From positions 1,642,609 through 1,706,608 of the forward strand of contig OZ241875.1 in assembly GCA_965203325.1 (NCBI GenBank): 64,000 nucleotides of DNA. Direction: 5' to 3'. Made by a program: the position numbers and the translations under genes. The stretch comes from a bacterium (GTDB lineage Bacteria; UBA8248). The notes under the pieces were generated by a model that searched no databases, was not told the origin of the DNA, and saw only the letters and a program-made list of their open reading frames with translations. Positions 4,571 to 23,574 of this stretch are shown in pieces. Within the stretch, counting starts at the first letter, position 1. Each line of letters starts with the position of its first letter.

Positions 4571-5575
4571 TTATTTCGCCAGCACCTTGTTCTTGATGGG
4601 CCGTATGTCGAAAACCTCAGGCTTGTTCGTGTCCACCTTCACCTTGACGGCGTGCATGTGCTTTGCGCCGAAGACCTGGAGGGCGACGACGTTCGGCGCC
4701 TTTTTCGGGAACGGACGCGTGATCCGGTATTTGTGGCTGTCGCCATAGATCAGCAGGACCGGCTTTTTGAACGCGGCGGCCTTTTCGAGCAGCGCATCGC
4801 CGAACCGCTTGAAGCCCGATGCGCCCGAGAACGCCTCTTTTTTCGCTCTGAAGAATCCCGGCTTGAACATGTCGGCGTGGATCGCGAGCACGAGCGCCTT
4901 TGCCTTCATGGCGATGGCCCCCTCGAAGCCCGCTTTCAGCCAGGCGACGTTCGCCTTATCGCGGGCGAAGAACTCCTGGACGGCGCGCCTGTCCCGCACC
5001 TCGAAATTGTTGTTCGAACCCACGACGTGCGCCGCCACGAAATGAACGCCCTCTTTCACGAAGCGCGCATTTTCGGGATAGCCGGCGAATTCCTTCATGG
5101 CGTCGGATTGGCGTTCGAGCTTCATGGGAGCCTTGCCGAGTGATTGCGGGCCGCGTGAGAAGTAGTGCTTCCGCAAGAAGGCGAGCCTCTCGATAGGATC
5201 GAAACGGCCGGCCTTCTTGCGGTGGCAATCCGTCCATTCGTTGTCGCCGGGCGTGTAGACGAGCGGGGCGTCGAAAGAGTTCATGAAACCGAGCTGGTCG
5301 AGCAACATCTTGTCCGAACAGGGCGTGGAGCCCGACTTGGTGTCCCCGATGTGAATGGTGAAGGCGGGTTTCAGCGCGTTCACTTGGCCGATCAGCGTCT
5401 TGAACGGTGCGTAGACCTTCGCGGGCTTCCCGTATGGCATGTCGCCCAGGGCCACGAAGGTGAAGGGCTGATCGGCCGAGGCTGCGCCCGCCGTCAGCAC
5501 GCATAGTGTCAACGCGCCGAGCAGCGCGCCCAAACATTTGCGCAAGAATGAAGCGGAATTTTTCATCGGACCCAT
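4571..5575 (-). CDS. Secreted calcineurin-like metallophosphoesterase
   Basis: Signal peptide (AASA-D), GDMPY, HIGDTK, PGDNEWTDC, GDSH motifs; exact start uncertain. Confidence 0.8.
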   Translation of the reverse strand: MGPMKNSASFLRKCLGALLGALTLCVLTAGAASADQPFTFVALGDMPYGKPAKVYAPFKTLIGQVNALKPAFTIHIGDTKSGSTPCSDKMLLDQLGFMNSFDAPLVYTPGDNEWTDCHRKKAGRFDPIERLAFLRKHYFSRGPQSLGKAPMKLERQSDAMKEFAGYPENARFVKEGVHFVAAHVVGSNNNFEVRDRRAVQEFFARDKANVAWLKAGFEGAIAMKAKALVLAIHADMFKPGFFRAKKEAFSGASGFKRFGDALLEKAAAFKKPVLLIYGDSHKYRITRPFPKKAPNVVALQVFGAKHMHAVKVKVDTNKPEVFDIRPIKNKVLAK

Positions 5576-5801
5576 CCCATCCACCTCCTATGGATTGCAA
5601 GAAAGATTGGCATCTCCCGATACGAAAGGAGACGCCTGCCAACAACTGGAAAAACAGCCATGCCGAAGTCCGGGTTTTCGCTCGTAGCTCCCTACGGGAT
5701 GGAATATAGAGAAGATTTCCAGGAGAGGTGTTACAAACAGGTGGCGGTTCCATGATTTTTCGCTAAAACAGGGGCGGATGAACCGCGCGCCGCTCAAAAA
5801 C

Positions 5802-6692
5802 CTACCTGCGCCAGCCCAGCCTGTCCGCGATGCGCAGGATGATGTCCGATCGGTTGAGGGCGTAGACGTGAAAATGGTTGACGCCCAGTTCCATCAACTC
5901 CCAAATCTGGAACGCCGCCAGATCGGCCGAGCTTTCCTGAAAGGCCTCGGGGTCATCCTCGTAGGGCGCCAACGCATCGACGACGCTTTTGGGCACGCTC
6001 GCCCCGCATTTTTCCGCGAAACGCTGGACCTGGCCGAGGTCGCGCACGGGCAGGATGCCCGGCGACACGGGAACCGGGACGCCCCGAATCGCCGTCTGCT
6101 CCCGGAACCGCTCCCAGACGCTCGCCTCGAAGAAGAACTGCGAAATCGCGTAGCTGGCCCCTTCGTCGACCTTGCGGATGAAGTGATCCATATCCGCGTT
6201 CTTGTCGGGCGTTTCGGGGTGGCCCTCGGGGTAGCAGGCCACGCCGATGGAGTGGAGCCAGTCGAAGTTACAGAGCCACCGCACGAGGTCGGCGGCGTAG
6301 CGGAACCCGCCGGCCACGGCCTCATCGTGCGTCATGCCTTCCGGGATGTCGCCGCGAAGCGCCAGGATGTCGTACACCCGGTTATCCCCATAAACGTCCA
6401 ACAGGCGTGAGAGTTCCGCTTCATTCGCGCCCACGCAGGTGAGGTGCGCCACGACGCGGCGCGGATAGCGCCTCGCCAGCTCCAGCACCAACTCGAGCGT
6501 GCCCTCCTGCGTGGAGCCGCCCGCTCCGTAGGTCACCGAGGTGAAGGCGACGTCCATCGCGTCGTGAATCGCCTCCACCTCGCGCAGGGTGCGCTCCACC
6601 GCCTTGCGCCCCTTGGGCGGGTAGAGCTCGATGGAGACGCTCACTCCATCGGAGACGATGCCATCGATGACGGCGGACAACCCGTTCACCAC
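5802..6692 (-). CDS. metF: 5,10-methylenetetrahydrofolate reductase
   Basis: SIELYPPK, SVTYGAGGST, AHLTCVG, LALRGD, ACYPEGHPE, ISQFFF, HVYALNR. Confidence 0.95.
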   Translation of the reverse strand: MVNGLSAVIDGIVSDGVSVSIELYPPKGRKAVERTLREVEAIHDAMDVAFTSVTYGAGGSTQEGTLELVLELARRYPRRVVAHLTCVGANEAELSRLLDVYGDNRVYDILALRGDIPEGMTHDEAVAGGFRYAADLVRWLCNFDWLHSIGVACYPEGHPETPDKNADMDHFIRKVDEGASYAISQFFFEASVWERFREQTAIRGVPVPVSPGILPVRDLGQVQRFAEKCGASVPKSVVDALAPYEDDPEAFQESSADLAAFQIWELMELGVNHFHVYALNRSDIILRIADRLGWRR

Positions 6693-6734
6693 TTCCCTCC
6701 TCCCTCAGACGGACGCCGGAAGAATGAGAAACGC

Positions 6735-6770
6735 AAAAAAACGGGCGCGGGGCATGTTCACCCCGCGCCC
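6735..6770 (-). terminator. Intrinsic terminator after the sod-peroxiredoxin operon
   Basis: Minus strand gggcgcgggg-tgaacatg-ccccgcgccc followed by g and T7. Confidence 0.8.
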
Positions 6771-6795
6771 AGGAACATCAGGTGCAAAGACCGGC

Positions 6796-7260
6796 CTAGC
6801 CCAGACCCTCGATTGCCGCGAAGAGCTTATCGTCGTCGGGCTTCTCAGGCGGAGCGGACGTCACCTCCATGTAGGCGACGTTCCCGTCCTTGTTGACGAG
6901 AATCACCGCGCGGTTGCTGAAGCCCTTGTCGTTCAAGAGCCCATAGGCCGCGCACGTTCCCTTGCCGAAGAAATCGCTCAGCAGCGGGAATTCGATGCCG
7001 TATTTCTCGGCCCAGGCGGCGTGCGCGAACGGGCTGTCCACGCTGATGCCGATGACCTCGCAGTCGGCATTGTCGAACTTCGCCTTCTCCGCCTGATAGG
7101 CGGGCAGCTGCTCGCTGCACACGGAGGAGAAATCGAACGGGTAGAAGCAAAGCAGCACGTTCTTCTTGCCCCGGTAATCGCTCAGCTTGATCGTGTCGCC
7201 CTCGGCGAGGGTTCTCGGCAGCTCGAAATCGGGAGCCGCATCACCTACGCTCAGTGCCAT
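6796..7260 (-). CDS. Peroxiredoxin (AhpE/BCP-like, AhpC/TSA family)
   Basis: [20 protein letters not shown] peroxidatic motif, GISVDS, FPLLSDF. Confidence 0.9.
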
Positions 7261-7272
7261 GAGACAACCCTC

Positions 7273-7860
<588 letters not shown>

Positions 7861-8106
7861 TTCGTTTTCTCCTTGATGGGAATGGAATGTTCCGATTCAG
7901 GTGGTAAATATCAAACCCCGAGGCCACGGCCCCGAAAAATTATCCAAAACCGCCGGATCGCGTGAACGGCGATAAGAGACGATGCGGATGGGTTTTCCGT
8001 GTTGAGTAAAATCGTATCTCTGCCCTGATTCACAAGCGCGCGTATTCTACTTTCAGGGATCGTCCGCGTCAAACCGCATCCTGAGCGGGAACGGCCCGTC
8101 TTTCGC

Positions 8107-9006
8107 CTATTCCGGCGCGTCCATCTTCTGGATTTCGTCGAAATCGCGGTAGAGAAGCGTCAGGTCCTCCTCGATCATCCCCCGCTCGACAGCCTTCCTC
8201 AAGAACGAGAGCGTACCCTCGGCGAGCTGGATGTCAGCACCTCTCTTTCGCCCGATGCCGACGGCGAGGCCGACGTCTTTTTGCAGGTTGTAGATGCGGG
8301 CCTGCCCGTTCCAGGTGCCCGAGAGGATGTTGTTCGGAAAACGGTGGCGGCTCGCGTAGCTGTAGGCCGTCGACGCGTTGAAGATGTCAATCATGTCCTC
8401 GACCCGCATCCCGAGCCGCTCGACGAGGCGCGCGCCCTCGCAGGTCGCCAGGAACATGGTGTGGAGCACCATGTTGTGGATGAGCTTCATGGTGTGGCCC
8501 GAACCCAGCGCGCCCAGATGGAAGACGTGGTCGACGAAGGGTTTCAGGTATCGCCTCGTGCGCTTCAAGAGTTTCTCGTCCCCTCCGATCATCAAGGTCA
8601 GCCTGCCCTCCAGAATGTTGCCGGGCCCGCCGCTCATGCCGGCGTCGAGATAGCCCAGCCCCGCGCGCTCGGCGCGCTTCGCGAGACGCTTCGTCTTCGC
8701 CGGGTCGGACGTCGTGAGGTCGTAGACGACGAGGCCTTTTTTCGGGTTTTTGAGCAGGCCGTCCTTTCCCCGAAAACACGCGGCTATCTCACTTGAGGAA
8801 GGCACGACGAAGAAGACGACCGCGCAGGATTCCCCTATCTCGCGCGGCGTGGCGATGACGACGCCCTCGGTTTCCTCGAAGAGCCTCCGCCTATCTTCTG
8901 CGACATCCCAGACCATCAGGGGCATCTTCGCTTGTAAGAACCTTTGCGCCACGGGATTCCCCATGCGGCCCAGGCCGATGACGCCCACGCCCTTTCGTTT
9001 CGCCAT
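8107..9006 (-). CDS. 3-hydroxyisobutyrate/beta-hydroxyacid dehydrogenase family oxidoreductase
   Basis: GVIGLGRMG, DAGMSGG, LTLMIGG, GSGHTMKLIHN, KDVGLA. Confidence 0.85.
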   Translation of the reverse strand: MAKRKGVGVIGLGRMGNPVAQRFLQAKMPLMVWDVAEDRRRLFEETEGVVIATPREIGESCAVVFFVVPSSSEIAACFRGKDGLLKNPKKGLVVYDLTTSDPAKTKRLAKRAERAGLGYLDAGMSGGPGNILEGRLTLMIGGDEKLLKRTRRYLKPFVDHVFHLGALGSGHTMKLIHNMVLHTMFLATCEGARLVERLGMRVEDMIDIFNASTAYSYASRHRFPNNILSGTWNGQARIYNLQKDVGLAVGIGRKRGADIQLAEGTLSFLRKAVERGMIEEDLTLLYRDFDEIQKMDAPE

Positions 9007-9044
9007 GCAACACCTCGGATGGATGAACCGGAAATGAATTCTGC

Positions 9045-9121
9045 TGGAGCCGACGACCGGACTTGAACCGGTGACCTGCTGATTACGAATCAGCTGCTCT
9101 ACCTGTCTGAGCTACGTCGGC
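9045..9121 (-). tRNA. tRNA-Thr(CGT)
   Basis: Reverse complement gccgacgtagctcag...ctgattCGTaatcag...ggttcaagtcc...gtcggctCCA forms a cloverleaf. Confidence 0.95.
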
Positions 9122-9304
9122 AAGAAGGAGTATGCAACCCTGGTGAGGCTCGCGTTCCCCATGAGGGAGGTATTGAACACACCGCCCCCGCCTTCGTCAA
9201 GCCGAAAGAGGTCCGGGCCACCCGAAACGCAAGATTCGTAGCCGCCCGCGTTTGACTCCACGGCTTGACTTACAGGCCCGTGCGTCGTAAATCTCTTTTC
9301 TCTT

Positions 9305-9377
<73 letters not shown>

Positions 9378-9535
9378 CTACAAACCACCCCGAATCCGTT
9401 CGGGTTTCATACTATTTCTCACAGGAACGCCCGGACTACGTCTCGTGCGGGAATGCGGCCCGCCCCCGGAGGGGGCCGGTTCGCGCGCCGGGTCACCCAC
9501 GGCCCGCTCCCGGATCACCAATATGGAGACCGAAG

Positions 9536-9925
9536 ATGGACGACGCCGAGAAAAAGGCCCTGATCGAGAAGACCGTCGCCGACCGCGGCTGGGTGCTGCC
9601 CGAGCAGGAGTTCTACATCAACAAAGACCCCGAATACCACGTGCGCCAAAGCGCGCTCTATAACCACGTCATCAAGCGCGAGGGGGCGCTCTCTGAAAAG
9701 ATGCGCGAGCTCATCATTATCACCGCCCTTTGCGTGCGCCTCCCCGGCACGGAGGTGGAAACCTACGTCAAAAACCACATCCGCCGCGCGCTGGACCTGG
9801 GCGCCACTGAGGATGAGATATTCGAGGCCGTGCAATGCCTGATCTTCCCGGCAGGCGGCCCCTCGCTGATGATGGGCATCAAGTGCCTGCGCGCCGTCCT
9901 GGAAGAGCGCGGACTTTTAGATTGA
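9536..9925 (+). CDS. Carboxymuconolactone decarboxylase (CMD/AhpD-fold) protein without CxxC
   Basis: LSEKMRELIII...HIRRALDLGATEDEIFEA...AGGP pattern. Confidence 0.8.
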   Translation: MDDAEKKALIEKTVADRGWVLPEQEFYINKDPEYHVRQSALYNHVIKREGALSEKMRELIIITALCVRLPGTEVETYVKNHIRRALDLGATEDEIFEAVQCLIFPAGGPSLMMGIKCLRAVLEERGLLD

Positions 9926-9954
9926 TTTTTCGAGATAGTCATAGGGGACACCGC

Positions 9955-10692
9955 ATGGACAGAAGCATCTGGGCGACCTGGTACGATCTGCCGAAAGAAG
10001 ACGAGGCCGAATACAACGACTGGCTCCACCACACCCACATCAAGGACGCGCTCAAGCGTCCCGGCTACATGTGGGCGGCCCACTATGAACTCGTGGACAG
10101 GGAATCGCCCAAATCGAAGAAAAAGGACCATTTGGCCTACACGGACGACCCCTCGATCCCGGGCGGCACGGAGTTTCTGCTGCTCTTCGGGGGCACGAGT
10201 GCTGAGGTGTTCCTGAGCCCCAACCCGGCGCAGCTTGCGGAGACCTATTCCGATGAGACGAAGGCGATGATCGGTAAGCGAATCGGCGAGCGCACGGGCA
10301 TCTTCACCGAGGTGGACCGGGTGAACGGCCCCGCCGCCGCTACCCGCGCTCTCGGAGGCGTGCCCGCGCCAATCGTCCAGATGGGAACCTTCAACTGCTT
10401 CACGCCCGAGGATGATTTCGACTTGAGTTCGTGGTACGCGCAGGACCGCCTGCCCGCAATGAAGTACATGCGCGGCTGCGTGGGCACGCGCAAGCTCGTC
10501 TCGGTGGCGGGATGGGCGAAACACTCCATCTTCTATGAGTTCTCCTCGCTGGAGATGGTCCTCGAGCACTTCCCGCGCGCGGACAAGCTCTTCCCCGGCG
10601 AGAACGACTGGTCGTACCACGTATGCCAGCGCCTGCTCCACGCACCTGGCTCGCCCACGCGCGGCAAGCGCATCTGGCCGCCCGTGGAATAA
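9955..10692 (+). CDS. Hypothetical protein, duplicated EthD/dimeric alpha-beta barrel-like domains
   Basis: Two similar halves: EYNDWLHHTHI...PGY and LSSWYAQDRLP...RGC. Confidence 0.6.
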   Translation: MDRSIWATWYDLPKEDEAEYNDWLHHTHIKDALKRPGYMWAAHYELVDRESPKSKKKDHLAYTDDPSIPGGTEFLLLFGGTSAEVFLSPNPAQLAETYSDETKAMIGKRIGERTGIFTEVDRVNGPAAATRALGGVPAPIVQMGTFNCFTPEDDFDLSSWYAQDRLPAMKYMRGCVGTRKLVSVAGWAKHSIFYEFSSLEMVLEHFPRADKLFPGENDWSYHVCQRLLHAPGSPTRGKRIWPPVE

Positions 10693-10708
10693 AGCGGAGG
10701 ACGCGCGC

Positions 10709-11398
10709 ATGAACTACATGAAGCCGATACCGGTCGAGGAGGCCGAAGGCGAAGCCGCGAAACTCTTCCAAGGCGTGACGAAAATGCTCGGGCGCGTGGC
10801 GAATTCCTTCGCCGTCATGGCCTATCAGCCCCACGTCGCCAAGGTCATCCTGCCGCTCACCGTCACCCTCATGCGCGAGGGGCTGGGCACGGTGCTGCCC
10901 ACCAAGATCAAGGAAATCGCCGTCATCAAGACGAGCCACCTGAACGGGTGCGACTACTGACTCGGACACAACACGGCGCTCGGTCGAGACGCCGGGGTGA
11001 CGGAAGCGCAGGTGCAGGAAATCTGCTCGGACGCCTATATGGATTCAAAGACGATGAGCGCGCGGGAGAAGGCCGCCGTCCTGTGGGCGGAGCACGTAAC
11101 GCTGAACACCGCCAAGACGCGCGACGACGTGTTCGAGGAGGTGCGGCGTCACTACGACGACCGCGAATTCGTCGAACTCACGATGGTCATCACCTACTTC
11201 AACATGAGAAACCGCTTCCAGGACGCCCTGCGCATCCCGCTCGATGAGCCGAAAACGATATCGGGCATCACCATCGGGCGCAGGCAGGACCCCGAGAACC
11301 TGAAAGCCTATCTCGCGGACGTGGTGGAGGGGTGGCCCGAGAGCTTTCCGGGGCCAGTGTCTGAGGATGGAGGTGTTGAGAAACCTTCGATTTCGTGA
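10709..11398 (+). CDS. AhpD/CMD-family selenoprotein; in-frame UGA at 10958-10960 read as Sec (codon 84, NGCDY-U-LGH)
   Basis: The two ORFs share a frame and are separated only by TGA; TGA occupies the second Cys position of the AhpD CxxCxxH motif; downstream HNTALGRDAGVTEAQV...REKAAVLWAEHVT...ELTMVI continues the fold; SECIS present. Confidence 0.88.
10974..10994 (+). promoter_or_regulatory. Bacterial SECIS-like hairpin
   Basis: CGGCG-CUC-[GGUC]-GAG-a-CGCCG; 21 nt separate the UGA from the apical loop; the loop matches the GGUC of the E. coli fdhF SECIS. Confidence 0.75.
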
Positions 11399-11447
11399 TT
11401 CGGCGTATGTAGCAGACCGGGGAAGGAGGAAACTTCACTCTCCTCTT

Positions 11448-11753
11448 GGGGTTGTTGGAAAAGGCCACATTTCAGGGGTAGAAGAGAAGTCCCTCTCGAA
11501 TGGAAAAGCAACCCCCCCTACCCCCCCTTGTCAGGGGGGTATAAAAAAACGATGCGCCCCTGCCGGGCTGAGGGGGCTTTGTTATTTCTTGCCCCTGGCG
11601 AGGGGGGTATGAAAAGGCGACGCCCGCCGCCGGTAGAGAGGGGTTTGCTTTTTCTTGTCCCCCTGACAAGGGGGGGTAGGGGGGGGTTGCCTTATGGGGT
11701 TTCCCTTTCAAGGGGGTTGCCATTACCCTCTCATGGGCTTTTTCAACAGCCCC
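11448..11753. mobile_element. Miniature inverted-repeat element with IS-like ends and a nested palindrome
   Basis: Left GGGGTTGTTGGAAAAGGCC, right GGGCTTTTTCAACAGCCCC; internal IR ccccctacccccccttgtcagggg / cccctgacaaggggggtaggggg. Confidence 0.65.
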
Positions 11754-11784
11754 GGAATAAAGAGAATTCAGGAGGCCGTCAGCC

Positions 11785-12228
11785 ATGAGCGAAAAGCCCG
11801 ATTTCGTCTGGGAGAACCTGGAAGTCGGCATGACGATCGGCGAGCGCAGCCTCAAGGTGACGCAAGCGATGGTGGATGCGCACTGCGACGCCGTGGGCGC
11901 GCGGCGGGAGTGGTATACGGGCGAATCTCCCTTTGGCTGCGCCATCGCGCCGCCCATGATCTTCATCAACGACCTGCTCGCCATCTACGATGCGAACTAC
12001 AAGCGCTTCGGCACCATCCACGCCAAGCTCGGCTACCGCTTCCACAAGCCCGTGCGCGTCGGCGAAACGGTGCGCCAGAAAGTCACGGTGAAGGATTTGT
12101 ACGTGAAGCGCGAGAAGGGCTGGATCGTGAGCGAGCTCGCCGTAACGAACGAGGCGGGGGAGTTGCTGCTCACCTCCTCGCACACTTCCGTCCTGAGCCT
12201 CACGAGAAGGCACGAAAAAGATGACTGA
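11785..12228 (+). CDS. MaoC/hot-dog dehydratase subunit
   Basis: SPFGCAIAPP, TIHAK...FHKPVRVGE hot-dog pattern. Confidence 0.8.
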   Translation: MSEKPDFVWENLEVGMTIGERSLKVTQAMVDAHCDAVGARREWYTGESPFGCAIAPPMIFINDLLAIYDANYKRFGTIHAKLGYRFHKPVRVGETVRQKVTVKDLYVKREKGWIVSELAVTNEAGELLLTSSHTSVLSLTRRHEKDD

Positions 12229-12652
12229 TACGCTGCCCGAAAACCTGGAACCAGGAGACGCCCTCCCCGAGCGGACGCACGAGGTGGACTGGGAGGACAT
12301 CCTCAAATTCAACCGCTACGTCACAGGCGGCGTGGATACCAGGAACATCCACACGGACGATGAGGTGGCCAGAAAGGCGGGCCTTCCCCGGGCGGTGGCG
12401 ACGGGCCGCCACCCGGTGTCGTTCATCACCGAGCTCATGGTCGATCACTTAGGCTTCGGCTTCATCACGGGCGGTGAGATCGATGTATCCTTCGTCAAGC
12501 CCATATTCCCGGGGGACGTTCTGACGCTTCAGGCCGTGCTCAAGGAGAAAACGCTCGACCAAGGCGCCACACGTTATCTCTTCGACGTATCGCTCACGAA
12601 CCAGGGCGGCGCAGCCGTAACGGTCGGCACTGCCGGCGCCCGACTCGCCTAA
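12221..12652 (+). CDS. MaoC family (R)-hydratase, catalytic-type subunit
   Basis: NIHTDDEVARKAGLPRAVATG, FVKPIFPGD. Confidence 0.85.
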   Translation: MTDTLPENLEPGDALPERTHEVDWEDILKFNRYVTGGVDTRNIHTDDEVARKAGLPRAVATGRHPVSFITELMVDHLGFGFITGGEIDVSFVKPIFPGDVLTLQAVLKEKTLDQGATRYLFDVSLTNQGGAAVTVGTAGARLA

Positions 12653-12661
12653 GACCCACGC

Positions 12662-14773
12662 ATGAGCGCGCACGAATCCCTGACGAGCCTGTTTCACCCG
12701 AAATCCTTCGCGGTGGTGGGCGCGGCTTCCGACTTGAACCGCCTGGGCGGCATCCCGCTCAGGCTCACGATGCGCTACGGCTTTCCCGGCCCCATCTACC
12801 CGATCAACCCGAGGCGCGAGGAGATAGCGGGCTTGAAATGCTACCCCGACGTGGCCTCCCTGCCCGAAGCGCCCGAGTTCGCGCTCATCTGCACCCCGAG
12901 AGAGGACGTTCTCCCCGCCCTCGCCCAGTGCGCGGAGCGCGGCGTCAAGGCCGCCGCCGTCATCACTTCGGGCTTTGCGGAAACGGGTGCGGAAGGCGTG
13001 GCGCTACAGGAGAAAATCCTGGAGTTGCGCGATAGGTCCGGCATGCGCGTGCTCGGCCCCAACTGCATGGGCGTCGTGCACGTGCGCTCGAAGCTCATGG
13101 CGACGTTCACGATATCCATCCGCGACGACGACCCGCTCATCCCGGGCGCGGTGGCCCTCGTCACCCAGAGCGGGGCGATGGGGGCGTGCATGCTCACGGG
13201 CTTTCAGGAGAGCGGCTCCGGCATCAGCAGCCTCGTGAGCCTCGGCAACGAGGTGGACGTTGATTTCGCGGAATGCGTCGAATACTTCATCGACGACCCG
13301 CACACGCGCGTCATCTGCGGGTATCTCGAATCGGTGCGCGACGGGGAACGCCTGAAACAAGCCGCCCTGCGCGCGCTGGGGCGGGGCAAACCCATCGTCC
13401 TCTTAAAGGGCGGCAAGACAGAAGAAGGCGCGCGCGCCGCGCGCAGCCACACTGCCGCCATCACGACTTCAAGCGACGTTTTCGACGCCTTCGCCGCGCA
13501 ATACGGGATTCAGGTGCTGGGTTCCATGGATGCGTTCATCGAGATAGCGGATTTCCTCGCGCGCAGCAAACCGATTCAGGGAAACGGGGTGGGCATTCTA
13601 AGCTTCTCGGGCGGTCTGGGCTCACTCGCGGCGGACTTAAGCACCGAGGCGGGCCTCACGCTCCCCATCCTCGCGGGGGAAACACAGGAAAAACTCGCGG
13701 GCGTCCTGCCCGACTACGCGCCCAAGGACAATCCCGTCGACTTGGTATCCCTCATGGTCAGCAAGCCCGAGAGCGAGCCGCTCAAAACGGCGGGGGAAGC
13801 GGTGGCGGGGGATGAGAACGTGGACGCCCTGCTCTTCATGATGGGCGTCTACCACCACGTGGGCGAGCAGATAGCGGCGGAGGTGAAGGCGCTCTTCGAA
13901 GCCTCATCGGTGCCCGTCGCCTTCGCCTGGCTCACCGGACCTCGCGAGCAGATAGACGCGCTCAGGAAAGCCTCCGTGCCCGTATTCGGCGATTACGCAA
14001 GGGCGATTCGCGGCCTGGAATCCCTCCTGTCGCTCAAAAACGCGCGCGAGGCGGCCGCCTCCAGACCCCGCTCGCTCGACCCTGCGCGGGCGGAGAAGGC
14101 GAAACGAATCATACGAGAGAGTATTCCCTCTTCCGACGGCTTTCTTCCGTCCGAGACCTGCGCGGAAATTCTCGATCTCTACGGCGTCCCGAGACCGAAG
14201 GAGACCCTGGTTGAAACGTCCGAAGAAGCGCTCAAAACGTGGGAAAAGTATAAAGCGCCCATCGCCCTCAAGGTCGTATCGGACAACCTTTCGCACAAGA
14301 CGGAAGCGGGCGGCGTCATTTTAGGTCTTAACACGCCTGATGAGGTTCTGTGCGCAGCTCAAAAACTGCTAGCCCTCAGCTATGATGCGCGTCTTCTGGT
14401 GCAGGAGATGATCGAGGGCGGCCTGGAGCTTCTCGTCGGCGTATCGAACGACCCGACGTTCGGCCCGTGCGTCACGGCGGGACTGGGCGGGGTGTACGTG
14501 GAAGCCCTCTCGGACGTGGCACGCCTGCTTCCGCCTTTCGATGCCGGGGAGGCCGAAGGCGCGCTGTCAAGACTTCGCTCGCGCGTCATCTTCGACGGCT
14601 TCCGGGGCGGGCCAACCGTTCAAATTCCGCACATATCCGATATAATGGTCAAAATCTCCGAACTGGCGACGGAATTAGAAGATACAGTCGCCGAGATGGA
14701 CTTGAACCCGCTCATCGCGGCGGCGGAGGGCTGCATCGCCGTGGACGTTCGGATAAAGACGAAATCCCAGTGA
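12662..14773 (+). CDS. Acyl-CoA synthetase (NDP-forming), fused CoA-binding and ATP-grasp domains
   Basis: PKSFAVVGA, GPNCMG, QSGAMG, SLGNE, AARSHT phospho-His, NPVDL, HKTEAGGV, EMDLNPL. Confidence 0.9.
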   Translation: MSAHESLTSLFHPKSFAVVGAASDLNRLGGIPLRLTMRYGFPGPIYPINPRREEIAGLKCYPDVASLPEAPEFALICTPREDVLPALAQCAERGVKAAAVITSGFAETGAEGVALQEKILELRDRSGMRVLGPNCMGVVHVRSKLMATFTISIRDDDPLIPGAVALVTQSGAMGACMLTGFQESGSGISSLVSLGNEVDVDFAECVEYFIDDPHTRVICGYLESVRDGERLKQAALRALGRGKPIVLLKGGKTEEGARAARSHTAAITTSSDVFDAFAAQYGIQVLGSMDAFIEIADFLARSKPIQGNGVGILSFSGGLGSLAADLSTEAGLTLPILAGETQEKLAGVLPDYAPKDNPVDLVSLMVSKPESEPLKTAGEAVAGDENVDALLFMMGVYHHVGEQIAAEVKALFEASSVPVAFAWLTGPREQIDALRKASVPVFGDYARAIRGLESLLSLKNAREAAASRPRSLDPARAEKAKRIIRESIPSSDGFLPSETCAEILDLYGVPRPKETLVETSEEALKTWEKYKAPIALKVVSDNLSHKTEAGGVILGLNTPDEVLCAAQKLLALSYDARLLVQEMIEGGLELLVGVSNDPTFGPCVTAGLGGVYVEALSDVARLLPPFDAGEAEGALSRLRSRVIFDGFRGGPTVQIPHISDIMVKISELATELEDTVAEMDLNPLIAAAEGCIAVDVRIKTKSQ

Positions 14774-14783
14774 GAGGACACGC

Positions 14784-15218
14784 ATGAGCACGAGAATCAC
14801 GCCCGAAATACGCGCCCTGGTGGGGCGAAAGCACGGCCCCTACCGCGTGAGGGTCGAGCAGGGGGCGATAGAGAAATTCGCGGACGCGGTCGGCGACGAT
14901 AACCCCGCCTACCGGGGGCCGGACGCGGTCGCACCGCCGACGTTTCCCACCACCTTCCGGCCAAAGGACGCCTACCCCGATCTCCCGCCCGGTTTCGGCG
15001 ACGTGGGCCTTCACGCCTCACAGGTCTATGAGGTCGAGCGGCCCATCCGCGCGGGCGATGAACTGGACATTTCCTTCACCATCGTGGACATCACCGAAAA
15101 GTCGGGCCGCACGGGCGACCTCGTCTTCGTCGAGCGAGAATACGAGTTCACCGACGCGCGCGACGGCGCCCGCGTGGGCGGCGGCAAGTGGGTGTCGCTC
15201 AGGCGATTCAGGAACTGA
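14784..15218 (+). CDS. MaoC N-terminal-like (HadA-type) hot-dog protein
   Basis: IEKFADAVGDDNPAY, APPTF, LHASQ, RPIRAGD, KSGRTG. Confidence 0.85.
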   Translation: MSTRITPEIRALVGRKHGPYRVRVEQGAIEKFADAVGDDNPAYRGPDAVAPPTFPTTFRPKDAYPDLPPGFGDVGLHASQVYEVERPIRAGDELDISFTIVDITEKSGRTGDLVFVEREYEFTDARDGARVGGGKWVSLRRFRN

Positions 15219-15228
15219 AGGAGAGACG

Positions 15229-15630
15229 ATGCGCTACCAGAAGGGAGATACCCTCCCTGAACTCGTGAAGGACCCCGTCTCGCGGACGCAGCTCGTGAAA
15301 TACGCCGGCGCGAGCGGGGATTACAACTCGATCCACTATGACGACGAGGCGGCGCGCGCGGGCGGACTGGAGGGCGTCATCGCCCACGGGATGCTCTCGA
15401 TGGGCTTTCTGGGGCAATTCGTCGAAACCGCCTTCGGCGCGGGAAGCTACAAGCGGCTCGAAGTCCGCTTTCAGGGCATGGTGAAGCTCGGCGAGGTCAT
15501 CACCTGCCGGGGCGTCGTGACCGATTTAGCAGAAGAGAATGGCCGGGAATACGCCGCCTGCGAGATCGAGGCGGTAGACTTAAGTGGCCGCGTCGTCACC
15601 AAAGGCTGCGCACAGGCCTGGCTGGACTGA
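15229..15630 (+). CDS. MaoC dehydratase (HadB-type)
   Basis: YAGASGDYNSIHYD...IAHGMLSMG hydratase-2 motif; SD aaggag. Confidence 0.9.
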   Translation: MRYQKGDTLPELVKDPVSRTQLVKYAGASGDYNSIHYDDEAARAGGLEGVIAHGMLSMGFLGQFVETAFGAGSYKRLEVRFQGMVKLGEVITCRGVVTDLAEENGREYAACEIEAVDLSGRVVTKGCAQAWLD

Positions 15631-15659
15631 AATCCATAGAACGGAAAGAGAGGAATTCC

Positions 15660-16403
15660 ATGAGACTGAAAGACAAGAACGCCCTCGTGACGGGCGCGGC
15701 CCAGGGCATCGGACGCTCTGTCTGCCAACGCTTCGCCGAGGAGGGCGCCAAGGTGCTCGTCGTCGACATGAACGAGGAAGGCGGCGAGGAGACGGCGCGC
15801 CTGATAAGGGAAGCCGGGGGCGAGGCGCTCTTCCACAAGGCCGACGTGAGCAGCCTCGCGGAAGTCGAGGGCGCGCTCGACGCGTCCGAGGCCGCGCACG
15901 GGCCCATCCACGTGATGGTGAACAACGCCGGCATCGTGCGCGCGGCCATGCTCCACAAGATGAGCGAAGAACAGTGGGACTCCGTGATCGCCGTGCATCT
16001 CAAGGGCACCTGGACGGGCATCCACGCGGCGGCCAAGCGCATGATCCCCCGGAAAGAGGGCCGCATCATCAACGTCACCTCGGGTGCGGGGCTTCGCGGC
16101 ACCATCGGGCAGATCAATTATTCTTCGGCCAAGATGGGCATCGTCGGCGCGACGCAGAGCGCGGCCCGCGAACTGGGACGCTACAACATCACCGTGAACT
16201 GCGTCTCGCCCGCGGCCATCACCCCGATGACGGAGACGATTCGCACCGATGAGCGATTCGAGTCGAAGTATCTCGAGCGCATCTGCCTCGGCCGGTGGGG
16301 CGAGCCCGAGGAGATGGCGGCGGGGTTCGTCTTCCTGGCGTCGGACGAGGCGAGCTACGTGACGGGCATCGTGCTCCGAATCGACGGGGGATTGGGGATG
16401 TAG
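15660..16403 (+). CDS. Short-chain dehydrogenase/reductase (FabG-like)
   Basis: TGAAQGIG, NNAGI, YSSAK. Confidence 0.92.
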   Translation: MRLKDKNALVTGAAQGIGRSVCQRFAEEGAKVLVVDMNEEGGEETARLIREAGGEALFHKADVSSLAEVEGALDASEAAHGPIHVMVNNAGIVRAAMLHKMSEEQWDSVIAVHLKGTWTGIHAAAKRMIPRKEGRIINVTSGAGLRGTIGQINYSSAKMGIVGATQSAARELGRYNITVNCVSPAAITPMTETIRTDERFESKYLERICLGRWGEPEEMAAGFVFLASDEASYVTGIVLRIDGGLGM

Positions 16404-16418
16404 GGGAATTATGGAATT

Positions 16419-16492
16419 GTAGGGACAACCCCCTGTGGTTGTCCCTCTTCGGAATGGATACGACCGGGACAGGCACGGGGGCCTGTCCCTAC
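16419..16492. repeat. GTAG-type REP doublet (REPIN) upstream of RAYT1
   Basis: GTAGGGACAACCCCCTGTGGTTGTCCCT ... GGGACAGGCACGGGGGCCTGTCCCTAC. Confidence 0.85.
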
Positions 16493-16555
16493 AAAAGGCC
16501 TTTTGTTTGACCTCGTCTCGGTTGTAATGAGTGGGTGTGGTCGAGAAATTTGCGT

Positions 16556-17137
16556 ATGAAAGACAGAAAAGCGAACATATTGAAGGGTTACGATTATTCG
16601 CAAGGTGGATGTTATTGCGTCACGGTTTGTGTGCAGGACAGAGAGGAATTGTTCGGTGAAATCATCGACGGTGAAATGGTTTCAAATGCCGCAGGTAAAA
16701 TGGTGAAAACAACATGGAACGAATTGCCGGAATTCTATAGCGGTGTTGAAACGGATCAATTCCAGATCATGCCGAATCACGTCCACGGCATCATCGTCAT
16801 TACGGGAAACGAATTCCCCCACGGAACTGTAGGGACAGGCCCCCGTGCCTGTCCTGAATATGCCCATCCTGACATGGGACAACCACGGGGGGTTGTCCCT
16901 ACGATGTCATTATCGGATATCGTGCATCGGTTCAAATCTATGACGACCCATAGATACATTGCGAACGTCAATGATGGTGAATGGAGACCCTTTGATAGGA
17001 AACTCTGGCAACGATCATTCCACGATCACGTCATCCGCGACTAGGAAGACCTCAACCGCGTCCGGGAATACATCCAGAACAATCCGTTGAAATGGGCGCT
17101 GGATGAGGAAAACCCAGCCAATCATGCGGGGCCGTAG
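16556..17137 (+). pseudogene. REP-associated tyrosine transposase (RAYT, IS200/Y1 family) with premature TAG at 17042-17044
   Basis: GYDYSQGG, MPNHVHGI (HUH), WQRSFHDHVIRD-*-EDLNRVREYIQNNPLKW; the catalytic Tyr lies after the stop. Confidence 0.85.
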
Positions 17138-17280
17138 GGGCGATTCCCTTTCCGGGACCGCCCCACTATTCGCGAACGGCTCTATTATCTTAATAGCCCC
17201 CCATCTGGCATCCCCGTCATGGGCCTGCTAGAATCGCCGCAGGTTTTGCCCCTTGATAACAAAAAGCGGAGGAACCGCCC

Positions 17281-18309
17281 ATGAAGGCCATGATCCTTAA
17301 AGAGTTCGGCAAGCCCCTCGTCTATGAGGAAGCGCCCGAGCCCAAGATCGGCCCCCGCCAGGTGCTCGTCGAATCGAAGGCGAACGGCCTTTGCGCGACC
17401 GACCTGAAGATAGTGGACGGCAGCGTGAAGTCGGCCCCCACGCCCCTGATGCTCGGCCACGAGAACTCGGGCGTCGTGCTCGAAGTGGGCTCAGAAGTCG
17501 ATTCCGTCACTCCGGGCGACCGCGTGGTCGTCGTGAGCAAGCAGACCTGCGGGCGCTGCCGCATGTGCCGCGCGGGCCATGAGGAGATGTGCCTGAACTC
17601 GCCGGGACGCCTGGGGATAGAGATCGACGGCGGTTTCGGCCAACTCGTCGCGGTCTCGGAACGGAACCTCGTCAAAGTCGGGGAAAACGTCTCGCTGGCG
17701 GCGGCCTCCCTCATCGGCGGGACGCTCGGCTCCCCGCTCCACGCCATCCGCATGGCGCGGCCCGAACTCGGCGAGTGCGCCGTCATCTTCGGGGTCGGGG
17801 GACTGGGGCTGCACGCCCTGCAGATCCTCCGCCACCTGGGCGTGAACGTCATCGCCGTGGACGTGAAGGAAGAAAAGCTCGCCAAGGCGCGCGAACTCGG
17901 CGCGTTTGAGACCGTGAACGCGATGGAGGCCGACCCGGTCAAGGCCGTGATGGACATGACGAACGGCTTCGGCGCGGACATCGCGCTCGAGATCGTCGGC
18001 GGAGCCGCCGTGCCGCCCGTGCTCCAGCAGTGCATCGATCTCTTAAGGCCCGGCGGACGCCTCGTCATCCTCGGCTACTCCTTCGGCCAGAAAGTGGAAA
18101 TCGACCCCGCGCAACTCGTCTACAAGTGGATCCAGATCGTCGCGTCGCACAACCACACGGTGCGCGACGTGGCCGACGCCGCGAGCCTGGTGAACGACGG
18201 CCGGGTGCGCGCCGTCATCACCGAAGAAGCCCCGATGCCGGACGCCAACGACGCGCTGGCCGCCCTTCGCGCGGGCGACCCGGTGGGCCGCATCGTCCTC
18301 ACGTGGTGA
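17281..18309 (+). CDS. Zinc-dependent alcohol dehydrogenase family protein
   Basis: GLCATD, GHE, CGRCRMC...C, GVGGLG. Confidence 0.9.
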
Positions 18310-22437: not shown

Positions 22438-23574
22438 ATTAACGAATCCCATCAAGACCCCGAATTCCTGAACGACCTCGGAATCCGCCGCGTCATCAGC
22501 GCGCGCACCCGCCAGACCGTCTTCGGCGGCTCGAAAATGAGGCCGGAAGTCTGGACCGCCATGCAGGAGGCGAACGCCGCCCAGGTGGACATGAACGAGT
22601 TGCACGCCAAGGCGGGCACGCGCATCGCCGGGATGACGCAGAACGAGGCGGCCTACGTCACGAGCGGCTCCGCCGCGGGCCTCGTGCTGTGCGCGGCCGC
22701 GTGCGTCACGGGCGGGAACCCGGCCCTCATGGACAGGCTCCCCTTCACCGACGGTCTCAAGAACGAAATCGTGATCCACCGCTTCCAGCGAAACCACTAC
22801 GACATCAACATCCGCCAGGCGGGGGCGCGGCTCGTGGAGATCGGCTCGCACCGCCAGACCCACCCCTGGGAGTTAGAGGAGGCCATCGGCGAGAAGACGG
22901 CGGGCGTCTTCTATTTCCCGGGCCGCTACGCGGGCGGAAACATCCTGAAGCTCAAGACCATCATCGAGATCGCGCACGGCAAGAACGTCCCTGTAATCGT
23001 GGACGCCGCGTCGCAGCTTCCGCCGTCCGCCAATCTCTGGCGCTACACCAAGGAGATGGGGGCCGACGCCGCCATCTTCAGCGGGGGAAAGAGCATCGGC
23101 GGGTCGCAGAACACGGGAATCATCCTGGGCAAAAAGGAGCTCATCGAGGCCTGCGCCATGATGGGAAGCCCCAGGTATTCGGTCGGCCGGCCCATGAAGG
23201 CGGGGCGCGACGACATCGTGGGCCTGGTCTGCGCACTCGAACATTACCTGGACGAGGGCGAGGCCGAACAGTACGCCCACAACGAGCGGTGGTGCGAGTT
23301 CTTCATGGAGCGCACAGCCGGGATGAAGGGACTCTCGCCCCGCGTGAGGCGCCCCAATTCCCTGGGACAGGATTTGCCCGAAGTCGTGATCGAAATTGAT
23401 GAGGATGCGCTCGGGAAATCGCGAGATGAGGTCGCCGATGCGCTATGGGAGTGCGAAGTAAGAGTGCAGGTCGGCATATCGGGCGAGTCGGGAATCTTCA
23501 TCTCCCCCGACCCGCTGACGGATGAAGACGCGGAATACCTGTGGGCGAGGTTTCAGGAGGTTGTGTCATCGTAG
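22438..23574 (+). CDS. SelA-like PLP-dependent enzyme (DgaE/D-glucosaminate ammonia-lyase family); probable ATT start
   Basis: LGIRRVISA..T.FGGS N-terminus lies upstream of the first ATG; VTSGSAAGL, VIVDAA, FSGGK (PLP Lys), GRPMK. Confidence 0.8.
   Translation: MNESHQDPEFLNDLGIRRVISARTRQTVFGGSKMRPEVWTAMQEANAAQVDMNELHAKAGTRIAGMTQNEAAYVTSGSAAGLVLCAAACVTGGNPALMDRLPFTDGLKNEIVIHRFQRNHYDINIRQAGARLVEIGSHRQTHPWELEEAIGEKTAGVFYFPGRYAGGNILKLKTIIEIAHGKNVPVIVDAASQLPPSANLWRYTKEMGADAAIFSGGKSIGGSQNTGIILGKKELIEACAMMGSPRYSVGRPMKAGRDDIVGLVCALEHYLDEGEAEQYAHNERWCEFFMERTAGMKGLSPRVRRPNSLGQDLPEVVIEIDEDALGKSRDEVADALWECEVRVQVGISGESGIFISPDPLTDEDAEYLWARFQEVVSS

Follow-up and report, generated by a model that had tools for sequence, protein, structure and literature searches.

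Does the forward-strand frame at 10709-11398, which is interrupted by an in-frame TGA, encode a single selenoprotein, or does the TGA end one protein ahead of another? The locus lies in a 64,000-nucleotide stretch of DNA (C1:1642609-1706608; hereafter the window) from a genome assembled as a single contig of 4,392,711 bases. From the ATG at 10709 to the final TGA stop at 11396-11398, the frame runs unbroken for 229 codons plus the stop except at the TGA of codon 84 (10958-10960), its only internal stop. A Shine-Dalgarno-like sequence, GGAGGA (10696-10701, + strand), sits 7 nt ahead of the ATG. Around the TGA the translation reads SHLNGCDY-U-LGHNTALGRDAGVTEAQ, which gives the motif C81-D-Y-U84-L-G-H87 followed by N-T-A-L-G-R-D-A-G. 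An open reading frame (ORF) list made with translation table 11 cuts this frame in two, at 10535-10960 and 10997-11398. The first-pass annotation had described just such a frame, with 229 codons, a UGA directly after SHLNGCDY and a split imposed by the ORF listing, and this description proved correct.

The conserved domain spans the interruption. The Pfam CMD family (PF02627) matches residues 60-128 with 43 bits (gathering score 23), crossing the TGA. Of the NCBIfam models tried, only the general TIGR00778 (ahpD_dom) was passed, at 32.1 versus 27.8. The cut-off of TIGR01926, peroxidase-related enzyme, was missed (61.8 versus 81.8 bits, model positions 3-174 of 178), as were those of NF053654, GroundWater_YciW (seleno)protein (75.5 versus 310), and NF041238, AhpD_rel_CFYUT (29.4 versus 175). 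By the NCBIfam cut-offs, the predicted protein falls outside every curated (seleno)protein family tried.

An AF2 model of the read-through protein, with Cys replacing selenocysteine (Sec), has a pLDDT of 92 and a pTM of 0.88. Foldseek matches it to 6k40, 2prr, 3c1l and 2pfx (TM 0.76-0.83 on target, E 3e-7 to 4e-6), the best PDB fold match being the AhpD of D. radiodurans (6k40, TM 0.83 on target). Two of the modeled helices, H65-79 and H82-94, form the conserved pair, with C81-x-x-U84 predicted to open the second of them. The predicted protein has the AhpD/CMD fold, and U84 aligns where the catalytic CxxC has its second Cys. The first residue of this motif, Cys81 (TGC, 10949-10951, + strand), aligns with Cys48 of PA0269, and His87 (CAC, 10967-10969, + strand) is nearly invariant in the family. 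The earlier statement that AhpD uses CxxCxxH holds in part: the spacing is that of this subfamily (CxxUxxH), but canonical AhpD and PA0269 have CxxCxxxH.

Both sides of the TGA carry the mark of selection on protein sequence. In comparison with 16 orthologues, codons 2-83 give a dN/dS of 0.02-0.20 and codons 85-215 one of 0.09-0.33, values that, like the synonymous counts below, omit L049 (truncated by a second TGA), L051 (broken frame), L056 (differing N-terminus) and every locus of less than ~70% identity. These ratios indicate that both halves flanking the TGA are under purifying selection. The frame, the Pfam match, dN/dS and the modeled fold all point to a predicted coding sequence at 10709-11398 (+ strand) for an AhpD-like selenoprotein of 229 aa with Sec at residue 84. 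In a crude scan of the window for frames split by TGA, 122 TGAs had open flanks, and the one at 10958, the one also compared with Pfam, was alone in showing a clean CxxU within a known redox domain; the window may hold further selenoprotein genes.

Decoding of UGA as Sec would require dedicated machinery, which the first-pass annotation had expected elsewhere in the genome. All of its components are there, each above a curated cut-off: tRNA-Sec (75.9 bits, above the Rfam cut-off; called SeC by ARAGORN, anticodon UCA), selB (392.8 bits, model positions 1-580 of 581), selA (571.4 bits) and selD (333.2 bits), the last with its own Sec in VKAGG-U-GSKLG. ARAGORN lists 55 tRNA genes, among which tRNA-Trp has the anticodon CCA and tRNA-Sec the sole UCA. 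TGA terminates 1924 of the 3802 open frames of at least 300 codons and is the commonest stop. Together, the CCA anticodon of tRNA-Trp, the restriction of UCA to tRNA-Sec and the use of TGA as the main stop exclude a reassigned genetic code.

The in-frame UGA at 10958-10960 (+ strand), predicted as U84, is retained in relatives. A search with the read-through protein found matches in 47 of 61 genomes of relatives, including 36 of 36 from the same family, and the TGA is in frame in all but three of the matches listed. At the CxxU column, 37 of 39 aligned loci carry TGA; of the other two, paralogue L033 has Cys (C-H-F-C) and L051 a broken frame at the site. A pattern scan of 185,579 species genomes yielded 80 loci, with TGA at the column in 79 and a broken frame in L077, which is the same locus as L051 (L051/L077); the sets of 39 and 80 overlap and the genomes are akin, so the counts overstate independence. 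The loci include some in metagenome-assembled genomes (MAGs) labelled Nitrospinota/Nitrospinaceae and, at ~50% identity, some in MAGs labelled Acidimicrobiales, Verrucomicrobiales, Chthoniobacterales, Burkholderiales and Rhodospirillales.

Where the column does not hold TGA, Cys is the most frequent residue. In 22 full-length database homologues it is Cys in 11, Ser in six, Trp in four (P0015, P0016, P0018 and P0020) and Leu in one. The Trp entries were probably created by a source pipeline that translated TGA as Trp. Cys also stands at this column in paralogue L033, PA0269 and Bmp8, and the homologues with Cys at this position that had been called for therefore exist.

Independent assemblies and contigs likewise keep TGA, and not TGC or TGT, at the site. 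The stretch is partly present in 23 of 24 listed sequencing runs, mostly at shares of 0.21-0.31 or lower, which are too small to carry weight as habitat evidence, and uncovered parts are uninformative. Contigs aligned to the stretch come from X2, X3, X20 and X22 only. The X22 contig covers just 10485-10641, short of the TGA, and the other three span it. One comes from a second sample of the study that best covers the stretch and matches 10561-11043 without a difference; a sponge-metagenome run supplies a DNA contig over 10660-11404 with 43 differences; and a 957-nt contig from a sponge-metagenome RNA library, which may contain DNA, covers 10426-11315 with 67 differences. Positions 10958-10960 are unaffected among the 40 differences listed of 123.

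Downstream of the UGA lies a bacterial SECIS-type hairpin (10974-10994, + strand), with the position, sequence, GGUC loop and 21-nt spacing that had been noted for it. It reads CGGCGCUC-GGUC-GAGaCGCCG and consists of 5 bp, a bulged A10989 and 3 bp closed by the GGUC loop at 10982-10985 (8 bp in all with one bulge, -11.5 kcal/mol), with 21 nt between the UGA and the loop. The bSECIS consensus, as given in an excerpt of PMC13188914, calls for a loop of 3-9 nt with G in the first two loop positions, an upper stem of 4-16 bp, a distance of 16-37 nt from the UGA and an MFE of -7.5 kcal/mol or lower, and the hairpin at 10974-10994 agrees with these published values. Such a hairpin is not rare by itself. 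The 71-nt fold has z = -0.52 relative to shuffles, a stability no better than chance, and 132 of the 1893 TGA triplets in the window (7.0%; 60% G+C) precede a hairpin fitting the bSECIS constraints, 50 of them (2.6%) one at least as long and stable. Taken without comparative data, the hairpin is weak evidence; it is raised above chance by its conservation across loci. An Rfam search with E up to 10 over 10700-11800 gave no match at the hairpin, and the 10 matches listed were far under their gathering scores.

Conservation was assessed on 32 distinct 48-nt stretches, each beginning at the TGA (alignment A1). Across these sequences 85.9% of cells are paired, a share that falls to 23-48% if the 3' partners are displaced by 1-3 columns. 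Both sides of a pair have changed in 27 cells, and the observed covariation score was reached by none of 500 shuffles. At the closing pair, 10981-10986, 19 sequences have C-G, 12 have U-A and one is unpaired. This pair couples the synonymous third base of Leu91 with the second base of codon 93 (Arg/Gln), and covariation of a synonymous site with codon 93 argues for coupling at the RNA level rather than the protein level. The loop GG is invariant and the next U nearly so. Synonymous change is depleted in the codons that form the hairpin: the count is 12 of 128 there and 515 of 2780 in the remainder of the gene, with a Fisher p of 0.007 that is overstated by kinship. The hairpins of paralogues adopt slightly different registers, with the bulge absent or elsewhere. 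A register with the bulge one column further 3' was also tried and rejected, as it pairs 81.6% of cells, below the 85.9% of the window's own register. By sequence comparison, then, the predicted hairpin at 10974-10994 is a conserved base-paired RNA element.

These lines of evidence make it very probable that 10709-11398 encodes one AhpD-like thiol/selenol oxidoreductase in which UGA 84 is decoded as Sec via the hairpin. Were this TGA a true stop, the locus would yield an 83-residue peptide and a separate protein of 133 residues initiated at GTG 10997, or else be a gene inactivated by nonsense mutation. The table-11 ORF calls give exactly such pieces, the C-terminal piece of relatives stands alone in databases at 126-133 aa, and TGA is the stop that this genome uses most. 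Yet the CMD domain (60-128) and the modeled catalytic helix pair both cross the TGA, which is kept in 79 of 80 loci with a dN/dS of 0.33 or less in both flanks; moreover, a nonsense pseudogene would not persist across phyla, and Cys takes the place of the TGA in a paralogue and many homologues. A true stop is accordingly very hard to credit. Equally improbable is that the UGA is recoded as a residue other than Sec, whether by a table 4/25 code (Trp or Gly) or by near-cognate read-through. Four database homologues do have W at the position, but the only tRNA here that reads UGA is tRNA-Sec, that for Trp having CCA, and 1924 of 3802 long open frames stop at TGA, as does this gene. Such recoding is also opposed by the complete set of Sec genes, the SECIS-type hairpin and the catalytic Cys aligned in homologues without TGA.

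If the selenoprotein is made as proposed, the hairpin at 10974-10994 would recruit SelB carrying Sec-tRNA(Sec), and Sec would be inserted at the UGA, as in the bacterial Sec pathway. By analogy with the AhpD family, the U84 selenolate may then attack a peroxide, an oxidized partner protein or a small molecule; Cys81 would resolve the adduct as a selenenylsulfide, which a cellular reductant would recycle. The machinery, a conserved UGA, its pairing with Cys in homologues, the hairpin and the fold together support the proposal that the gene encodes a CxxU redox enzyme, whose biochemical function is assigned by analogy. Because His55 of PA0269 is aligned with Asn88 and none of 13 neighbors is an AhpC or peroxiredoxin, the classical AhpC-AhpD mechanism is not established for this protein.

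The genes around the locus encode a 3-hydroxyisobutyrate-dehydrogenase-type protein, a small CMD protein, a 245-aa protein, two hotdog/MaoC dehydratases, an ADP-forming acyl-CoA synthetase and dehydrogenases. The small CMD-family protein (9536-9925, + strand; 129 aa; PF02627, 41 bits) lacks CxxC or Sec and is found upstream in orthologous loci. Gene order is kept in 17 orthologous loci (L063-L078 and L084), with the small CMD gene absent in L073 and L076-L078. No match to the AhpC/Prx family was found among the 13 ORFs scanned at the locus (4956-18309). Directly upstream, at 9955-10692 (+ strand), lies the gene for the 245-aa protein, which belongs to no curated family and is a possible partner, as it is a recurrent upstream neighbor of AhpD-like Sec genes: it adjoins them in three of its five copies in the genome and at 31 of the 80 loci. 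The protein has at least 318 relatives in databases, a single invariant cysteine, Cys175, and a weak likeness to DUF4286, EthD and NIPSNAP; its AF2 model, built from an 11-row alignment, has a pLDDT of 54.4 and is too poor for a fold search. The selenoprotein and the 245-aa protein may be functionally linked. The genome as a whole carries 10-11 Sec-bearing AhpD-like paralogues, and many such paralogues are held by the Nitrospinota-labelled lineage.

A selenoprotein whose job is something other than peroxide detoxification through AhpC, for example reductive dehalogenation of the Bmp8 type or reduction of the 245-aa neighbor, is unlikely, though it has points in its favor. Bmp8 is among both the sequence and the fold matches and shares the C-x-Y-C-x-x-H motif that PA0269 lacks; no peroxiredoxin gene occurs among the 13 ORFs, the 245-aa gene recurs as described, and close relatives lie on contigs from runs labelled sponge metagenome. 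Halogenated sponge metabolites form the background to the dehalogenation reading. Against this, identity to Bmp8 reaches only 18-19%, the protein is matched best by peroxidase-related proteins and AhpDs, and no halogenase or bmp-type genes were found among the neighbors scanned. The Bmp8 gene belongs to the bmp gene cluster. A more specific and slightly more doubtful proposal is that the selenoprotein and the 245-aa protein form an undescribed two-component selenol/thiol redox system, its two genes copied together within this lineage and present in Rhodospirillales-labelled MAGs as well, with a substrate other than AhpC. Given a CxYCxxH motif like that of Bmp8 and relatives in sponge metagenomes, the job of such a system could be a deiodinase-like reductive dehalogenation or the detoxification of host-derived compounds.

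The value of the AhpD-like selenoprotein assignment lies mainly in annotation, because standard gene callers divide or cut short this gene, its Sec-bearing paralogues and its relatives. The listed relatives of at least 84% identity are fragments of 126-141 aa; P0004, P0005 and P0010 begin just after the TGA, and P0010 is sourced from NCBI among others. The warning that standard annotation would miss the gene is thus borne out for its relatives, whose public entries are split or partial. Automated pipelines built on NCBIfam (seleno)protein models, none of which attains its cut-off on this protein, will probably continue to overlook the subfamily. The biology is not new: catalogues have included AhpD-like selenoproteins with CxxU since 2005. 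Modest interest attaches to the roughly 11-fold Sec-bearing paralogy and to the recurrent 245-aa neighbor as a possible partner, which offers a testable handle on the role of the abundant AhpD-like selenoproteins.

Among proteins of known structure, the closest by sequence (E 8e-17) is PA0269 of P. aeruginosa (2o4d, 2ijc and 7xw1), a weak peroxidase. Its Glu36, Cys48, Tyr50 and Cys51 correspond to E69, C81, Y83 and U84 here, with residue roles and numbering taken from an excerpt of PMC3141380. The relay residue His55 of PA0269 aligns with Asn88, whereas the nearly invariant His87 of the present protein stands one residue earlier. PA0269 also differs in having Cys instead of Sec and in its length of 145 aa, compared with 229 aa here, where extra N- and C-terminal segments are present. 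AhpD of M. tuberculosis (the 1knc/1gu9 class), the reductant of AhpC, belongs to the same superfamily and likewise has its redox dyad at a helix start, according to the excerpted PMC3141380. As a fold match it is distant (TM 0.52 on target, E 0.2-0.5), and it differs in its CSHC...H motif, in the lack of Sec and in having ahpC adjacent, whereas no peroxiredoxin gene lies among the 13 ORFs scanned here.

Bmp8, the tetrabromopyrrole debrominase (6ohi and 6ohj), shares the CMD fold over ~190 residues, covering residues 15-177 (TM 0.75-0.78 on target). The C-x-Y-C-x-x-H spacing is common to Bmp8 (C-M-Y-C-K-S-H) and this protein, whereas PA0269 has C-A-Y-C-V-N-M-H. Bmp8 is a Cys enzyme, however, with 18-19% identity and a sequence-match E of 5e-7. 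The best-scoring NCBIfam models, NF053654 and NF041238, describe AhpD/YciW-type families with Sec forms, yet the present protein is not a member of either.

The nearest likeness is to the AhpD-like selenoproteins of marine metagenomes, which the first-pass annotation had mentioned and which the literature does report. Excerpts of the respective papers give 27 Sargasso Sea sequences of AhpD-like CxxU selenoproteins under COG2128 in 2005 (PMC1088965) and, for the GOS data in 2008, 299 selenoproteins and 902 Cys homologues of AhpD-like 1 together with 70 sequences of AhpD-like 2, PF02627 (PMC2398784). A 2026 review, likewise consulted as an excerpt, has an entry for an AhpD-like protein with TIGR01926 and CxxU (PMC13188914). 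Like these proteins, the present one has a CMD/AhpD domain, a single Sec in CxxU and a SECIS element 3' of the UGA with a loop G, and the resemblance extends to widespread Cys homologues and to an occurrence in marine or host-associated bacteria. It differs from the family as listed in missing the TIGR01926 cut-off, the likeness being one to published descriptions, and this copy belongs to a Nitrospinota-labelled genome rich in Sec-bearing paralogues. A full-text search for Nitrospinota with selenocysteine, its scope lying outside supplements and BSepDB entries, returned one paper, and no discussion of the subfamily's expansion was found. The lineage itself is already on record: the MAG that carries L081, an orthologue 67% identical and with the TGA, is among the ten bacteria richest in selenoprotein genes in BSepDB (2026). 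Judged by its sequence, the predicted protein is a genuine but typical representative of the AhpD-like CxxU selenoproteins, and its lineage had been listed as rich in Sec before.

Selenocysteine in AhpD-like proteins is not confined to the window gene. The source genome, a single contig (C1), encodes 11 CMD/AhpD-like paralogues (Pfam PF02627) with a TGA at the column of the CxxU selenocysteine, with the TGAs at C1:280817, 370674, 1432343, 1653566, 1754654, 2009590, 2407585, 3106910, 3729226, 3808942 and 4369310; the one at 1653566 belongs to the gene in the window. The GGUC-loop hairpin, the bacterial SECIS element, lies at an equal distance from the TGA in nine of these 11. Among the other paralogues in this genome, one carries Cys instead and two lack the Cys-x-x-Sec/Cys dyad. 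Genomes of the same family each yielded between 4 and 22 matches when searched with the read-through protein.

The selD gene of this genome (C1:1726679-1727641, minus strand) encodes a selenoprotein too, with selenocysteine in-frame in the context ...VKAGG-U-GSKLG.... Within the window, a weak match to the SelA family (43.1 bits, model positions 183-340) was found at ~22810-23265 on the plus strand (C1:1665418-1665873), in an open frame of 414 residues. The true selA is separate from this match, at C1:1932543, and the SelA-like gene is probably a related PLP enzyme.

The gene at window 9955-10692 (plus strand) encodes a 245-residue protein that belongs to no curated family; it resembles DUF4286, but at an E-value of only 0.007. 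Its neighbours in the Atlas are clusters labeled 'hypothetical', NIPSNAP and EthD-like, and its relatives fall into at least 318 database clusters, every named one of which is labeled hypothetical. Cys 175 is the sole invariant cysteine. Four further copies are present in the genome (C1:2008569-2009303, 2406432-2407142, 2849126-2849845 and 186950-187657), and in three of the five copies the gene is directly adjoined by an AhpD-like selenoprotein gene. Across the homologous selenoprotein loci from public genomes, a homologue of the 245-residue protein is found within 3 kb of the selenoprotein gene in 31 of 80, including two MAGs with Rhodospirillales titles.

On the 3' side of the selenoprotein gene, the spacer (window 11399-11784) is a dispersed repeat with 263 blastn matches across the genome, which cover its middle up to ~140-fold. 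At this site the aligned gene ends are just 3-12 nt apart in five orthologous loci (L066-L070), and ~1.9 kb is present in four others (L065, L073, L077 and L084). The repeat looks like a REP/MITE-type insertion.

Two sequencing runs (X3 and X20), one of DNA and one of an RNA library, contain contigs 92-94% alike to the gene, as compared over window 10400-11500. Both are labeled sponge metagenome, and sponge-associated communities are therefore home to relatives of this organism.

Four database homologues of 362-365 residues (P0002, P0003, P0008 and P0009) begin with the post-selenocysteine portion of one AhpD-like domain, followed by a second, full AhpD-like domain in which Ala-x-Tyr-Ser replaces Cys-x-Tyr-Sec. 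Apparently each is a two-domain protein in which the gene caller truncated the first domain at that domain's own TGA.
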